The notes under the pieces: generated by a model | What the model was told of the DNA's origin: nothing | Seen by the model: the letters and a program-made list of their open reading frames with translations, nothing else | Database searches by the model: none | Source: an uncultured Planctomycetales bacterium | GTDB taxonomy: Bacteria; Planctomycetota; Phycisphaerae; UBA1845; PWPN01 | Direction of reading: 5' to 3' | NCBI GenBank assembly: GCA_964653435.1 | Contig: CAZZFA010000004.1 | Location: forward strand, 22,492-86,491 | Length of the DNA stretch: 64,000 nucleotides | Part shown: positions 56,601 through 58,615 of the stretch, one piece after another | Position numbering within the stretch: position 1 is the stretch's first letter | Layout of the letters: each line of letters starts with the position of its first letter | Program-made: the position numbers and the translations under genes

Positions 56601-58615
56601 CTGACGGCGGCGTCACGCGGTACACCTACGACGCCGTCGGCAATCGCGCGGGGGTCACACTCCCCAACGGAACGGGCACGGAGTACACGTACGACGCCGT
56701 GAACCGGCTGACGAGGCTTGTGAACCGCGGGATCGGCGGCGCGGTACTCTCATCCTGTGAATACACCCTGGGCCCCCGCGGAAACCGCACGCGCGTCGTG
56801 GAGCAGGGCGGGCGCACGGTCGACTACACGTACGACGCGCTCTATCGTCTGATCGAGGAACGCATCAGCGATCCGGCATCCGGTCCGCGGACGTTTGCGT
56901 ACACGTACGACGTCGTGGGCAACCGCCTCACCATGAGCGTTCAGACGCCGACGGGCCGTACCGACGTCGTCTACACCTACGACGAAAACGATCGGCTGCT
57001 CAGCCAGCGCGAAACCGTGACTCTGACACGGTCCGACGGCGGCGCAGGCACCTTCGCCGCCATCGGGCCGCAGCCGTCGCGCGGAAGCTTCGTCGGATTC
57101 CTGCTCTTCGCGGCGGCGACGGCCGCAACGCTCCTCACGCCCTGCGGGCTGCTCCTGCCGGCAGCGGGAGCCGTCGGGCGCGGGGTCCGGCGGCGGCGGT
57201 TCTTCACGATGACCGTCGCACTCTTCCTGGTTCCATGCGTGTTCGTGGGTCCGGAGAATGTCTACGGCCTGCACGTGGAGGCGCTGCTCTACAAGGTCGT
57301 CGGGGCGGCTGCCGTCGGACAGGTCCCGCCGGCGACGACGCTTACGATGACGTACGACGCCAACGGCAACATGGTCGGCCGCACCGACGGCGTGAAGACC
57401 GACGACTACACCTACGACGATGAGAACCGCCTTGTCGCCGCGAACATCCAGCTCGGCACGGAGCCGGGGCCGGTGAGTTACCAGTACGACGTGAACGGCG
57501 TGCGCGTCCGCAAGACCACCGCCGGTGCGACCACGGATTACCTCGTGGACTCGAACCTGCCCTATGCCCAGGTGATCGAGGAGCGGACCGGCGCGGCGAC
57601 GGTGTCGTACGTGTACGGCGACGAGCGGATCAGCATGAAGCGGTCCGGCGCGGGCACCAGCTACTACCACTACGACGGTCAGATGTCGACGCGCGTGCTG
57701 ACCAACGCGGCCGGTGCGGCGACGGACACCTACGCCTACGACGCGTTCGGCGTCGTGCTCAACCGGACCGGCACAACGCCCAACAGCTACCTGTTCACCG
57801 GCGAGGCGTTCGACGCGAATGTGGGCTTCTACTACCTCCGCGCGCGGTACTACAACGCCGACGCGGGGCGCTTCGTCTCGATGGACGACTGGCAGGGCAA
57901 CCTGTACGAGCCGCGAACGCTGCACAAGTACGTGTACTGCCACAACGATCCCATCAACAACCTGGATCCGAGCGGTCATTTGGCCATTCCGACATTGATG
58001 TCGGTCGTGTGCACGATCGCGATCACGGTCATCCTGGGCATGATCTTCTTTGGAATTGTCATCTGGACCGGCACCGCCGCCCTCGCCAATGCGGTGAAGA
58101 CCTACTCGAAGAAGGTTACGCCCGGGACGCTGAAGTGGGTTCTGCGGCGCTACGGCGGCATCTTCGACGATGCGCCATATTACGCCGACCAGTTCGCGTC
58201 CGCTTATGGGACGTCGGCGGCGAGCCTGTGCGACCCGGCCTGCGGTAATTCGGCCGCGAAGACGATCGGGTGGGTCGAGACGCAGGAGGGCAAGGCCATC
58301 AAGGACCTTCTGAGCACGCCGGATTACGTGGGAATGGGCCTTCCGGCGCACTGGTACAAGCGGCACCGCTGGCAGGATGCTTCCGGAAGCTGGCATCTGT
58401 ATCCGTTTACTCCGGAGTACGCGTCGTTCTGGGCCGGCGTGCTCTTCTACCACCAGGTCTGCGTCCTGAAACCGAGAGGCGAGGCGCCGTCGCTTTGGAA
58501 CGACTGGATCGTCGTCCTCGACAACTGGAACAGTGCGCCTGCCCGCGTCTACAACTGGGACGCTGTGGTCCATGCAAGCTGGGCGCGACAGATCGGCCAC
58601 CAGGGAGGCGTTTGA
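44606..58615 (+). CDS. giant secreted multidomain Rhs/YD-repeat protein (4669 aa)
   Basis: A single uninterrupted ORF. The domains, in order, are: signal peptide (MVTMSRMRYRVLVVGGCVLAVVCAHRPETALA); dockerin-like EF pairs (DSDGDVDTADF / DLDGDADVDTADF, 45029-45200); three PKD-like + LamG-like modules; a prenyltransferase/terpene-cyclase-like alpha/alpha toroid (~47570-48560); PKD domains; about 12 cadherin-like Ig repeats (50104-53360); an Rhs plug (GNFTITFTDVSVPLSGLPITVTRTYDS); YD repeats (~54590-57900); the Rhs core end YYLRARYYNADAGRFVSMDD...DPINNLDPSGH (DPSGH at 57965-57979); and a 211-aa C-terminal domain. Confidence 0.9.
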   Translation: MVTMSRMRYRVLVVGGCVLAVVCAHRPETALAQPVANPGGPYTATAATRAEGGWTFSFDGSASTGDPPLVQWEWDFGTDTCEGQWLNTFKWVSQNAYNDGAIILSGAGWGNSFVFSREPVLRQEAATLTLGPSDAAAGRSADFDSDGDVDTADFLVFQGCFSGSNRSPSAAGCEIADLDGDADVDTADFGIFQDAFNGPNRPPKNAKPADSSPAPADSPGNPVPGVFQARVTPDGGHAMWGFKNTSTNYSYTQMPYALYFERGNLHIYEDGSHRGQFATYAPGQTYDVRIELKTAGGARYLWKLPSDADWTLLRDTTYGSGTSLLRGVTVESGTFRMDDVREVFYGKTLTHKVYQGGPAMLTVQDSTGQSQTATFDIAVEPADIVANAGGPYTQTEGDRGADGWTFSFDGSASTSGLEIIQYEWDFGPDTFDGDGPDAGQYFIARAYQTAGQVRISGSGWGNAYLFARRIVTRSGAPILQARVTPDGGQAMWGFKNTSTNYSYTQMPYALYFDRGNLRIYEDGSHRGQVGSYTPGQAYDVRIRLKNTSGAMYFIKPADAADWTLLYDSYYGSQSELLAGATVESGTFVIDEQTRRSYGPTPQCTVAGPMPVTLTVTDLLGRTASQQFSLRITGQPPVADAGGPYSASLGETVTLDGTRSTDDYGIVRYEWDLGTQTFDGSELNGEAWFASRATQDNRLLVTGAGNWGGAYAFSKQIVSRAKDVALECRVLPSGNHAMYGFKNLSGDYSYTQMPYGLYFAGGTLQVCEDGSGRGSVGGYSKTTPYDVRIVLKETAGATYWIRPTGTEVWTCVYDSNYGTGTRFLRGVTVHSGVFETDDFRDVFGGSQVPYIVTRDTTARLTVYDVQRQATTASVPVQLIPMVVCVPWDYDKISGREIPHNAWDGLATRLKAVAYTDTSASNLSVTWDFGDGTAAETGGVSDKRIIETMHSYRGDPGALYTATVTVHDPVHGDLSDTYPVQIHARDLTIEVNVAIDEGLWFLHKRNLGGWWNSNQGYWVSPTASCVHALEINGHTLNRSRSIDPLVEDVAGGLRSILSNLYASSIAAQPYGDPDSNGNGLGIFVNSGRRIYEGGMVMDALAASGVPDRVADVGGSGILGRTFRDIAQDMMDAYAWGQVDSGAARGGWRYEWNSGADNSASQWAAIGFLGIKAAFGLDVAAWVKQENNVWLTYSYNGTGFGYDGPGNGQATTPSGMVQLACDGYEISDPRWQTAEAYIANNWDWFRNNTNIYAWYAFTKAMRVALPAAVVNLRPTGMDWYAHPTKGIARLLLNFQRSDGGWPPDMGWNLGSPFNTAWSVVILTPTLFTRPPVAVAGQDIVWAFDRPLEFDGSKSYHTDPARVLVLYEWDFDGDGTYDYAGADPRTTHTYSFDPNIQYPVIYQAKLRVTDDVGQAATDTRDVTIAEPPHAPFARAGGPYTVSAGVPFHPDGSGSYDIDPTDYITRQEWDFNGANGYNFDQPDAAVDCTAAGCPQVTWVFTAPGTYNIGLRVWDNGVLHPQNRKLASVPDYTTVTVVQNQPPTANPGGPYTVDECKSVRLDGSGSTDPNGDAITYAWDLDGDGEFDDSTEPAPMFTRNQNGTYTVSLIVSDGATQSPPATTQVLVRDTAPTVSLTGPSRLGISQEGTFTATVGSPCDAVVGIQWDWDYDGITFQASGDEGTTQKHGYAAQGRYRVAVRVTDSDGSAAIAVLDVTVEAPVAPRVPAGVRVKVVVGQREYDNARKVHRGQFSLVSVYDLPITGPVALAFDNIKPDTVKLLNSQGTVRDPATGRDLPYVDFSDLLAGGKLAPGATLGPKWVEFEDPGRVAFTFDAMAYIFNAPPKFTSTPVLTADEGQRYRYEAKAVDDDGDPITFALRDTNGTPPPEGMTVHPLAGIVDWVPSQTAAGAHDVTLVAIDGFAGGEGTQTFRITVGAVDAPPVITSAPPTTATVNVAYQYQVVAYDPDGGAVTFTLPTAPAGMTIDAAGGMIQWAAPVVGSHTVKVVVTDVRNQTAAQEYVLTVISCGQPPEITSQPPTTATEGEPYTYAVVATPSGAVLSWSLPVAPDGMTIDAAGRISWTPSYTSHGMRTVKVVAAGEPGCQAEQIFQINVADVNAPPRIVSSPIESAAEGRPYRYNVQAVDPDGDTIAFSLAAAPAGMSIQPVAGIVEWMPSQTAASDSPYTVTIEAVDPSGAVGRQTFQIAVTAEDLGPQITSTPNYLAVEGQPYEYPVLAIDPDNDPLTYALTEAPAGMTITAAGVVQWMPGPRAAQSGPYAVRIVVSDQAGHSATQAYELVVRKSNVPPEITSTPVTVAREGDIYRYPVTATDADGDVLKYSLRVAPGGMSIHPTAGAIDWLVPQTAAANNPTRVTVAVSDGAAAAEQSFEIIVEAVNVAPMIFSTPVTRAAVGAVYQYDVEANDVDGDIVTYSLSQAPDGMTIDAVTGVITWQPAVGQDGLQSVTVAAADPANLTDEQTFVIEVAPCPDAPEFTSEPKTTASPGVAYRYEVKARVKAGSITYALTTAPDGMSMDAQGVITWTPTQAQMGTHDVVVVATRDAVCPSQQAWQVEVKECELAVSYPLPPLVPGQTAQFAPQLTSNCGPLTFELASGPAGMKVNSATGVITWTPALGPFAAEVHVVDAWGTTATATFSGEVVPQTPPRITSVPPMTAKVNELYSYQVVAVDDDGDAIEFAFVKGPAGMAMDPTTHLVTWTPDDAAIGTHPVEIRVTDARGASMTQSFGVTVSLTGTNRAPEITSTPPMTAYADADYTYAVVASDPDGDPLTYSLSTAPPGMTIDAGNGLIAWHPTGADLGSYAVTIRVDDGGGWATQSFLLEVRVNTPPTITSTAVTKAIVGLAYRYDVKAVDPDEPQLAYALAQSPAGMAIDAQTGAITWTPAADQVGDQAVLVSVKDSRQAEATQAYIVTVYADPSADLLPPEVAITANPRVVDPGEPVTITVTATDDFGIASVSLTVNDTAVVLDPAGRAQYTPPAPGPYIARAVATDLTGKMRTATTDFGARAAGDAIPPSVAITSPEIDAELKAPTDFVGTASDANLYRYALAYRPIGESEWIEFATGYSSVTAGILGRLDTTRMRNGLYDIRLRAEDTNGNVNEVVTACAVAGQMKVGNFTITFTDVSVPLSGLPITVTRTYDSRDKSVGDFGVGWRIELSSLTVTENSVAGKDWQQQMIPGFAGMNRYVLTPIRPKVVSVTWPDGRIERFAMSVSPSQQMLVPIAFFDRIVFTPIPPATSRLDVLGDTSGYYDGGAPGVGDIYLYSDSTAMDPANYRLTAKDGTTYTFVGNANAPTARLQSLTEPNGNSLQITLNGIVHSSGKSVTFERDDRKRITSITDPRGGTLRFTYDDRGDLVAAENANGEVTRYTYDGNHGLVEIIDPRGVPVARNEYDDDGRLVATIDADGRRTEFQHDLNNRQEVVKDRNGNVTVNEYDDAGNLVATTDALGQRTTCTYDDRGNKLTETDPLGHTVTQTYDAANNVLSRTDALGNRTEFTYDAAGRTLTKRDPMGNVTRNTYDARGNLLSVTEPGDRVTTYTYDAAGRMTSETDPLGRTTTYEYDGAGNLVRETDPLGHAVTYTYDANGNRLTRTTTRTTPAGPETLTTTFVYDANNRLVKTIDPAGHETRIEYTPTGQKAADIDVLGRRTAYEYDERGHLVRTLYADGTEERTTYDPEGRKLTTTDRAGRTTTYTYDKVGRLVRTTWVDGTFIESEYDAAGRVVRETDERGNATRYAYDAAGRRISVTDALGGTAAYEYDANGNRIRMTDARGNVTRYEYDARRQLVRTTFADGTSTAVTYDAAGQKVAETDQAGRVTRFAYDANGRLLSVTDALGGVTRYAWDEVGNQISQTDAAGRITQFEYDRLGRRTRRILPNGAAEVMTYDAAGRMIARTDFAGRTTTFEYDLADRLVRKNLPSGASKVFTWTPDGLRKTAVDGRGVVTYEYDQRARLVRQTEPDGRQIAYAYDARGNRTAVTSPSGTTTCTYDALNRLETVTDPDGGVTRYTYDAVGNRAGVTLPNGTGTEYTYDAVNRLTRLVNRGIGGAVLSSCEYTLGPRGNRTRVVEQGGRTVDYTYDALYRLIEERISDPASGPRTFAYTYDVVGNRLTMSVQTPTGRTDVVYTYDENDRLLSQRETVTLTRSDGGAGTFAAIGPQPSRGSFVGFLLFAAATAATLLTPCGLLLPAAGAVGRGVRRRRFFTMTVALFLVPCVFVGPENVYGLHVEALLYKVVGAAAVGQVPPATTLTMTYDANGNMVGRTDGVKTDDYTYDDENRLVAANIQLGTEPGPVSYQYDVNGVRVRKTTAGATTDYLVDSNLPYAQVIEERTGAATVSYVYGDERISMKRSGAGTSYYHYDGQMSTRVLTNAAGAATDTYAYDAFGVVLNRTGTTPNSYLFTGEAFDANVGFYYLRARYYNADAGRFVSMDDWQGNLYEPRTLHKYVYCHNDPINNLDPSGHLAIPTLMSVVCTIAITVILGMIFFGIVIWTGTAALANAVKTYSKKVTPGTLKWVLRRYGGIFDDAPYYADQFASAYGTSAASLCDPACGNSAAKTIGWVETQEGKAIKDLLSTPDYVGMGLPAHWYKRHRWQDASGSWHLYPFTPEYASFWAGVLFYHQVCVLKPRGEAPSLWNDWIVVLDNWNSAPARVYNWDAVVHASWARQIGHQGGV
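45287..45433 (+). repeat. intragenic repeat copy 1 (147 nt)
   Basis: 139/147 identical to 46043-46189 by hand alignment, with only 1 mismatch in the first 86 nt. The offset is 756 nt, which is in frame. Confidence 0.9.
46043..46189 (+). repeat. intragenic repeat copy 2 (147 nt)
   Basis: See copy 1. It encodes QARVTPDGGQAMWGFKNTSTNYSYTQMPYALYFDRGNLRIYEDGSHRGQ. Confidence 0.9.
50104..53360 (+). repeat. about 12 tandem ~90-95-aa cadherin-like / putative Ig (He_PIG-like) domain repeats within the giant gene
   Basis: The recurrent pattern is PP.ITS.P...A..G..Y.Y.V.A.D.DGD.LTYSL...P.GM.ID...G.I.W.P. I counted 12 unit starts (PPKFTST, PPVITSA, PPEITSQ, PPRIVSS, GPQITST, PPEITST, APMIFST, APEFTSE, one degenerate, PPRITSV, APEITST, PPTITST). 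Confidence 0.8.
57980..58612 (+). other. C-terminal 211-aa domain following the Rhs DPxGH motif (putative polymorphic-toxin tip, unrecognised family, begins with a TM helix)
   Basis: It reads LAIPTLMSVVCTIAITVILGMIFFGIVIWTGTAALANAV...KKVTPGTLKWVLRRYGG...HWYKRHRWQDASGSWHLYPF...WARQIGHQGGV. No motif that I recognise. Confidence 0.6.

Follow-up and report, generated by a model that had tools for sequence, protein, structure and literature searches.

How can a protein built as a toxin cage carry, between two repeats of its wall, a segment that resembles a membrane anchor followed by a secretion signal? Rhs cages are usually viewed as soluble capsules which are handed to a secretion machine. The question is raised by a stretch of 64,000 nucleotides from an uncultured Planctomycetales bacterium (contig CAZZFA010000004.1, positions 22,492 to 86,491), referred to here as the window, and by one giant gene within it (44606–58615, + strand). 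The gene encodes an Rhs/YD-repeat protein of 4669 amino acids (aa), in which the YD repeats are broken in frame by a cassette of about 100 residues (57008–57343, aa 4135–4246). As judged from the sequences compared, this cassette is a module of giant Sec-dependent Rhs proteins which is restricted to one lineage and had not been annotated before. The function proposed for it, to which we give an even chance, is that of a stop-transfer and internal-signal membrane hairpin, which would tether the cage to the inner membrane of the producing cell and possibly be cut by signal peptidase.

The Cassette Within the YD Shell

The YD repeats of the giant stop at ...VVYTYDENDRLLSQ, the last repeat upstream of the interruption (56966–57007), and restart at TMTYDANGN from position 57344. 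The cassette between them begins with a probably disordered linker, RETVTLTRSDGGAGTFAAIG (57008–57067), variable in length and sequence across the family, for which the AlphaFold2 predicted local distance difference test (pLDDT) is below 50 at model residues 247–259. It is followed by the juxtamembrane motif PQPSRGS (57068–57088; family consensus (R/P)-P-S-R-W-A-G) and by hydrophobic helix 1, FVGFLLFAAATAATLLTPCGLLLPAAGAV (57089–57175), a putative stop-transfer transmembrane (TM) helix with a Kyte-Doolittle (KD) peak of 1.94. The Arg-rich loop GRGVRRRR (57176–57199), which the loop composition in the family marks as putatively cytoplasmic, leads to hydrophobic segment 2, FFTMTVALFLVPCVFV (57200–57247; KD 1.75), a short stretch similar to a signal-peptide h-region. 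The c-region-like GPENVYG (57248–57268; family consensus G-P-E-x-V-x-A, then L), with a putative signal peptidase I (SPase I) site after V-Y-G, is succeeded by the conserved amphipathic helix 3, LHVEALLYKVVGAAAVGQ (57269–57322), with its conserved E, A, Y and A columns. In a 19-residue scan of all 4669 residues, the KD value exceeds 1.6 in three segments only, at aa 4160–4185, 4198–4217 and 4457–4497.

The region of aa 3900–4669 was modelled with AlphaFold2 from a 112-sequence alignment, and the output was read as secondary structure and pLDDT. On both sides of the cassette, as far as aa 4140 and from aa 4244 onward, beta strands are predicted with pLDDT above 95. The part in between contains a disordered stretch and then three helices, at aa 4159–4182 (helix 1), 4192–4213 (segment 2) and 4216–4235 (helix 3). 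The confident parts match the shells of Rhs proteins (RhsA), teneurin and TcB/TcC, with E values of 1e-30 to 1e-19. Sequence matches to solved Rhs structures end at ...YDENDRL and resume at TYDANGN, and none of these structures spans the insert.

An earlier note on this DNA had placed a non-YD insertion at 57065–57256. The peptide it quoted is the exact translation of these positions, in frame within one open reading frame (ORF), and the RRRR block lies at 57188–57199 as it had stated. The anatomy it described, with a first half like a C-terminal anchor with an Arg cluster and a second half like an N-terminal signal, also stands. The interruption is real, although its true span (57008–57343) is wider and adds the upstream linker and the third helix.

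Conservation and Distribution of the Cassette

A 129-position profile of the cassette was used to search 1.84 billion representative proteins, with clusters defined at 50% identity. It matches 113 clusters at E ≤ 1e-3 and 68 at E ≤ 1e-10, and all matches are Rhs proteins except two weak, spurious ones. Every carrier with a named organism belongs to the Phycisphaerae or Planctomycetota. In full-length members (2000–5500 aa) the cassette lies 370–520 aa from the C-terminus and ~200–230 aa before the DPxG motif; in the giant of the window, about 470 residues are C-terminal to it. Such a recurrence goes beyond chance, because the cassette sits at the same position in 113 clusters from independent assemblies and contains near-invariant residues. 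Its presence, position, conservation and composition are matters of direct observation.

A search for homologues with aa 4050–4400 returned proteins with the cassette (P0001, P0002 (about 50% identical), P0008 and P0019) as well as proteins in which ~100 residues are absent exactly at the cassette site (P0003, P0004, P0005, P0007, P0009, P0011, P0016 and others). In the alignment, the latter join ...YDxNDRLxxE to xxYxYDxNGN by a few residues, and the cassette reads as a discrete addition between two YD repeats. P0003, the closest homologue that lacks the module, is encoded at a contig end, and its context is uninformative. A scan of the genome collection with the module profile was dominated by the ubiquitous YDxNGN pattern and returned one locus, in a Phycisphaerae metagenome-assembled genome (MAG); a word-indexed profile search was likewise swamped by the common pattern and gave 3 matches.

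The conserved positions are distributed over the whole module. In the motif before helix 1, the column frequencies are P 88%, S 59%, R 45%, W 32%, A 52% and G 36%, and a Pro five residues from the end of helix 1 is 94% conserved. The loop has the consensus R.RR.(L/I)GRRARRRR, with R at 61–88% in alignment columns 66–72. The consensus of segment 2 is xIALFL(V/I)PLMxV, which continues into G-P-E-x-V-x-A-L-H-x-E-A-x-L-Y. Over 74 distinct complete modules, the apolar run of helix 1 has a median length of 22 residues (interquartile range (IQR) 20–24) and that of segment 2, with G-P included, a median of 15 (IQR 14–15). The loop between them has medians of 14 aa, 7.5 R/K and 0 D/E.

The comparison with homologues, which the earlier note had named as a check on its reading, shows the insertion to be conserved in place and in character across the 113 clusters, with its hydrophobicity retained. 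Of the two explanations that the note had offered, the genuine two-helix membrane element in the Rhs shell draws support from this deep conservation. The other, an in-frame fusion scar, is not supported as a recent accident, given the in-frame conservation in more than 100 divergent clusters.

Signal-Peptide Anatomy of the Second Half

The second half of the cassette resembles a type I signal, which is recognised by Sec and SPase I, in having an Arg-rich n-region, an h-region of ~12–15 residues, a polar c-region with a helix-breaking residue, and fitting residues at −3 and −1. Counted from the putative cut after V-x-A, the family columns contain P in 83% at position −6, V in 66% and V/L/A/I in 92% at −3, and A in 70% plus G in 9% (79% together) at −1. 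Position +1 is occupied by L/M/I/A/W/V and never by Pro. The N-terminal signal of the giant itself has the c-region P-E-T-A-L-A before Q, so that its P(−6)..A(−3)..A(−1) matches the pattern of the internal segment. In the giants, the second half is internal, unlike such signals; only stand-alone or orphan cassettes, P0204, P0192 and P0203 among them, have it at their N-terminus.

As a hairpin anchor, the cassette offers a helix 1 of TM length and a strongly positive loop, together with a segment 2 which is short for a stable span and a pLDDT of 46–68. The second half is built like a cleavable signal peptide, and not like a second stable span. Pfam and NCBIfam give no match on the cassette segment even at E ≤ 10.

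Orphan and Stand-Alone C-Terminal Cassettes

The C-terminal part of these proteins is also found on its own, and the points at which such copies start can be read directly from the sequences. One metagenomic contig carries the giant P0128, then a SUKH-3 immunity gene, and then the orphan P0026, which is homologous to P0128 only from the Arg loop onward, with 76% identity up to the core. P0204 begins with RRRILRGTLCLFLSLLTLIGPETVVA followed by Q (RRRILRG...), five codons past an in-frame stop; a small ORF follows it and no giant gene lies upstream. The start of P0049, from a Phycisphaerae MAG, immediately follows a stop and falls within the end of helix 1. Among the cluster representatives listed, ~37 start inside the module and about as many within 150 residues upstream of it. 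The cassette marks the 5′ edge of an exchangeable C-terminal unit, because the 5′ ends of orphan and stand-alone copies cluster in and just before it.

Some stand-alone cassettes open with just the Arg cluster and segment 2, which is in form an ordinary N-terminal signal peptide. If expressed, these would be ordinary secreted proteins. Such starts are suggestive only, and they keep alive both an ancient two-gene origin of the giants and an exchange of toxins in trans.

The P0204 gene (locus L007, 2646–5371) is immediately preceded by a gene like those for the small subunit of phage terminases (PF05119) and followed by an ORF of 181 aa. Its neighbours give a hint that it may be carried by a mobile or phage-derived element.

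Architecture of the Giant Protein

The order of domains in the giant is a Sec signal, Ig-like arrays (PKD/He_PIG/Big_9), a DUF6531 plug, the YD shell, the Rhs core and the tip. The GC content of third codon positions (GC3) is 0.87 over the ORF, a codon-position signature of real genes, in a genome of 67% GC. The N-terminal signal peptide (44606–44701), read from the sequence, is MVTMSRMRYRVLVVGGCVLAVVCAHRPETALA and is followed by QP. Pfam RHS_repeat matches the protein in 17 stretches with E 3e-144, along with He_PIG, PKD_4 and Big_9, and NCBIfam YD_repeat_2x (TIGR01643) matches with E 2e-54. The plug is located N-terminal to the shell, at aa 3115–3161 (Pfam, 32.5 bits against a cut-off of 24.1). 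The C-terminal unit behind the cassette (57344–57979; pLDDT above 90 from aa 4244) consists of the final YD repeats and the Rhs-associated core (57737–57979; TIGR03696 of NCBIfam at aa 4378–4458, 69.7 bits against a cut-off of 32.5). It ends in ...NDPINNLDPSGH, with the DPxG motif of putative autoproteolysis that closes the core at aa 4458. By its YD repeats, N-terminal plug and core with DPxG motif, the giant can be classed as an Rhs polymorphic toxin. An exact look-up of its sequence found no record.

The tip opens right after DPxG with a very hydrophobic helix, LAIPTLMSVVCTIAITVILGMIFFGIVIWTGTAALANAV (57980–58096), which has a KD value of 2.79 and is modelled as a helix of 43 residues (aa 4461–4503). 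The rest of the tip (58097–58612, ~170 aa, GC 0.57–0.62) lies outside known families and has low pLDDT. The tip as a whole (~210 aa) has no Pfam match and differs among homologues. A hydrophobic helix of this kind is present in 43 of 57 module-bearing and in 26 of 86 module-less homologues (Fisher p = 1.7e-7, a value not corrected for phylogeny). This correlation of the module with a hydrophobic tip start suggests a joint action of hairpin and tip helix, either in a membrane or inside the cage.

Two further observations concern the ends of these proteins. In this Rhs clade, the tips after DPxG begin with L-F-(T/S)-L-(V/I)-E and a long apolar helix (P0185, P0203, P0144, P0186, P0141, P0134 and others). 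Autoproteolysis after DPxGL, if it occurs, would expose the N-terminus F-T-L-V-E..., which is like that of mature type IV pilins and pseudopilins. Of the 10 tips tested, 7 are matched in register by N-terminal models of pilins and pseudopilins (GspI E 1.8e-4; TIGR02532 with 16.6 and 16.1 bits, its cut-off being 16.3); these models give no match to the tip in the window. At the other end, aa ~35–900 (44700–47300) form three tandem units of ~250–290 aa ahead of the Ig arrays, each with ...WGFKNTSTNYSYTQMPYALYF.RGNL.IYEDGS.RG..., which are covered by no Pfam family.

A Proposed Stop-Transfer and Internal-Signal Hairpin

The proposed hairpin starts from the route of export. The giants are probably threaded through SecYEG, since those of the family begin with signal peptides; the N-termini of members other than the one in the window are signal-peptide-like too. 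The N-terminal signal peptide would start the export of the adhesin-plus-shell part of ~4100 aa. Under the positive-inside rule, an apolar segment of ~20 residues followed by poly-Arg is expected to stop transfer. Helix 1, with ~22 apolar residues and then 6–9 Arg, would accordingly act as a stop-transfer anchor, and the Arg loop would remain in the cytoplasm. Segment 2 together with the Arg cluster would then serve as an internal signal at which export begins anew, now for the final YD repeats, the core and the tip. Folding would take place on the periplasmic side, with the cage fastened to the producer's inner membrane by a flexible linker of 20–40 residues. Because segment 2 carries a canonical SPase I site (P at −6, V at −3, A/G at −1), a cut after V-x-A is probable and would yield a two-chain cage, of which the N-terminal chain keeps the hairpin. 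The two chains may be held together by the beta sheet, in the manner of autoproteolysed Rhs fragments and of TcB/TcC. The topology, the tethering and the cleavage are what we infer from the features of the cassette.

An extension of this proposal treats the giant as a polyprotein. The SPase cut would produce a membrane-tethered cage of two chains, and independently exported cassettes would dock onto the resident N-terminal shell, so that the toxin could be swapped in trans without recombination. This extension is conceivable and is put forward with considerable doubt.

Several points weigh against the membrane hairpin. The pLDDT in the insert helices is only 46–68, and helix 1 of the window is rich in Ala, Thr and Pro and only marginally hydrophobic. 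The tip helix, with a KD value of 2.8, should also stop transfer during Sec export, which would strand the toxin in the cytoplasm of the producer, a difficulty to which the proposed mechanism has no answer; the charges that follow it are not consistently positive. The conservation of V-x-A could belong instead to the amphipathic helix that comes next. Many orphans start upstream of the module and include both helices, so the signal-peptide-like starts of other copies could be partly coincidental. Many of the orphans with both helices have no N-terminal signal at all, as silent recombination substrates would.

Alternative Explanations

Among the other explanations, one places the hairpin in the lumen of the cage, where it would pack against the tip helix as a built-in chaperone, or has it insert into the target membrane, where it would help the tip to cross, in a way comparable to the N-terminal transmembrane domains of the prePAAR Rhs effectors. 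It is unlikely. The association of the module with a hydrophobic tip start described above fits it directly, Rhs cages are known to shield hydrophobic cargo, as in the case of Tse5 (whose structure is 8cp6), and Rhs effectors with transmembrane domains (TMDs) exist (PMC7773334). It has to contend, however, with the Sec signal peptides, in whose presence an apolar 22-mer with 6–9 Arg is expected to integrate into the membrane of the producer. An Arg-only loop without acidic residues and an SPase-like c-region have no obvious role inside a cage, and the long disordered tether before helix 1 better suits an external anchor.

A second explanation considers the cassette as an evolutionary junction with little present function, formed when an anchored N-terminal giant and a separately exported C-terminal unit were fused, and kept mainly as a recombination boundary for the exchange of tips. 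The resemblance of the halves to a C-terminal anchor and an N-terminal signal is what such a fusion would leave, the 5′ ends of orphan cassettes cluster in or near the cassette, and the local GC content rises to 0.76 there, with CGG repeats. These observations agree with part of what the earlier note had supposed: the cassette does coincide with the boundary of an exchangeable part, although not through a recent accident. On the other hand, motif positions are 70–94% conserved in frame over 113 clusters that are no more than 50% identical, and this conservation across divergent clusters argues for selection on the cassette peptide itself. No unambiguous unfused pair was found, and the ORFs that end after helix 1 (P0177, P0189, P0225) are a few short fragments of a transposase-associated subfamily. 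A mere junction is quite unlikely.

The third explanation, an internal sorting signal of the exosortase type or another sortase-like type, in which an exosortase or a similar membrane protease would cut a P-x-P-S/helix/Arg element, is highly improbable. It takes its appeal from the tripartite order of motif, helix and Arg cluster, from the conserved P-S just outside helix 1 (P 88%, S 59%), and from the PEP-CTERM-like protein encoded next door. A PEP-CTERM signal was tried as a candidate for the first half of the cassette and rejected. The conserved motif is P-S-R-W-A-G (PQPS in the window) and not P-E-P, the element is internal and not C-terminal, and an interfacial aromatic belt would account equally well for the W/Y-rich motif. 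When nine first halves of the module were presented as if they were C-terminal, none matched PEP_CTERM TIGR02595 or other sorting-domain hidden Markov models (HMMs) at E ≤ 10, whereas the control, which was the tail encoded by the neighbouring gene, reached 15.5 bits, with a TIGR02595 cut-off of 16. The PEP-CTERM-type label that the first half had been given was dropped on these grounds. The exosortase that the note had expected from the tail of the neighbouring gene was not found among the window ORFs scanned, a negative which extends to those ORFs only.

An assembly or frameshift artefact, or a non-coding insertion like a miniature inverted-repeat transposable element (MITE) read through in frame, has a negligible probability: the local GC spike, a change of sign in the AT skew and a flanking 13-nt imperfect inverted repeat may be cited for it, but on the + strand of 56900–57460 both other frames contain stops and only the frame of the gene is open, the GC3 of the cassette in frame (0.85) is the same as that of its flanks, and the same peptide cassette recurs in more than 100 independent assemblies. 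The stops and the GC3 exclude the frameshift which had earlier been named as an alternative, and the AT-skew change arises because apolar residues have T-rich second codon positions. The inverted repeat (57031–57043 and 57308–57320, 92% complementarity) brackets the cassette almost exactly and is likely due to chance, because it is short and GC-rich and the conservation at the protein level is deep. A mobile or MITE insertion was rejected as a candidate: a repeat scan showed only YD-repeat DNA and short GC-rich matches, and Rfam showed tRNA only.

Genomic Context

The gene downstream of the giant (58676–59449, + strand) encodes a secreted protein with a PEP-CTERM-like tail, IPEPLTVGLVAAALAALSYRYGRR. 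The tail had been called a bona fide PEP-CTERM, which slightly overstates a score just under the TIGR02595 cut-off, although the assignment remains plausible from its IPEP, helix and RR. Homologues of this protein are encoded downstream of an Rhs gene or cassette at L002 2577–3419 (BLASTP E 3e-11) and L004 25046–26734 (E 4e-7). The family, with an N-terminal N-x-D-F-x-x-G-L-x-G-W region, lies downstream of an Rhs gene or cassette in three independent loci, and the longer L004 homologue has, by eye, a VWA-like region. Its members may be conserved accessory proteins and not immunity proteins. No immunity gene is recognisable after the giant (58616–59900), where the next gene belongs to no known immunity family; related loci carry SUKH-3 or small ORFs downstream of their Rhs genes. 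The homologue locus L003 has no same-strand downstream gene either.

Upstream of the giant lie sdhC, sdhA and sdhB (39604–43269, − strand), and a tRNA-Arg(cct) lies downstream (59792–59867). The ORFs scanned in the window include no type VI secretion system (T6SS), no rhomboid and no dedicated peptidase, and the neighbourhoods of the homologues have no consistently conserved processing enzyme. Genes for Rce1-like/CPBP intramembrane proteases (PF02517) are found less than 10 kb from module-bearing Rhs genes at L001 1733–2674 and L006 1–991. This proximity is likely due to chance, and no such gene is among the window ORFs scanned.

Two other regions of the window stand apart from the giant. The first ~16 kb (1–16079) have a lower GC content (0.59–0.61, as against 0.66–0.69 elsewhere), end at a tRNA-Gly(ccc) (16008–16079), and encode the primase domain of a TOTE conflict system (AEP-TOTE, E 2e-32, ORF 11457–12578). 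This stretch is probably an integrated defence or mobile island. Positions 19585–29037 hold four sulfatase genes, a periplasmic pectate lyase and a BD-FAE esterase, a polysaccharide-degradation locus typical of Planctomycetota.

Relation to Known Systems and Significance

The giant has its YD shell, DUF6531 plug, DPxG core and polymorphic tip in common with the known Rhs/YD toxins (RhsA, 7q97; RhsP, 8h8a; Tse5, 8cp6; the Sec-dependent WapA and bacterial teneurin-like proteins, PMC13018210). Their orphan cassettes with immunity genes are seen here in related loci as well. It differs from them in the TM-like hairpin between two YD repeats, ~200 aa before the cleavage motif. No description of a TM-like hairpin or an internal signal in a YD shell was found in the open literature searched, in solved structures, in Pfam or in NCBIfam, subscription literature being outside the scope. 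The survey of polymorphic toxins by Zhang/Aravind (2012) and the 2026 paper on bacterial teneurin-like proteins include no internal hairpin in the YD shell. The prePAAR/TMD-containing Rhs effectors of the T6SS, which have Eag chaperones, carry TM helices that are thought to act on membranes (PMC7773334). Those helices are N-terminal, chaperoned in the cytoplasm and fired by the T6SS, whereas those of the giant are internal and belong to a Sec-exported protein that has no T6SS context.

With PEP-CTERM/exosortase signals, the cassette shares a short motif, a hydrophobic helix and an Arg cluster. It differs in its internal position, its P-S-R-W-A-G motif, a longer helix 1, a double basic region and the lack of an HMM match. 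Internal signals that are cut by SPase are known from polyproteins, such as the FbcH cytochrome b/c1 precursor of Bradyrhizobium and the polyproteins of flaviviruses and pestiviruses. The likeness is close, with a stop-transfer helix, then a signal-like segment with a −3/−1 site, and one translation product that gives two membrane-side products. To our knowledge, an SPase-cut internal signal has never been reported for a toxin cage, and in the giant the cleavage is only putative.

In the cocoon of the ABC toxins, TcC supplies about 680 aa of the shell, whereas only about 215 aa follow the cassette in the giant. The TcB/TcC cocoon (4o9x, 4igl) is a precedent for a cage of two polypeptides with cargo subunits provided in trans, and its fold matches the shell of the giant. 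A single TcB can be loaded with "orphan" TcC subunits whose genes lie at other loci (PMC11067744). The giant has no TcA partner, and its two-chain state is suggested by the SPase-like site and by the stand-alone cassettes.

The cassette defines a sequence family of 113 clusters which current domain libraries miss. It also provides testable sites for the export of very large toxins, namely the V-x-A cut, the Arg loop and the P-S motif. If the proposed hairpin is true, the cassette would give giant Rhs proteins whose only export signal is a Sec signal, in Planctomycetes and other phyla, a defined membrane-tethered intermediate, and it would explain where the exchangeable tip cassettes begin. A two-chain cage architecture made by a protease of the host might follow.

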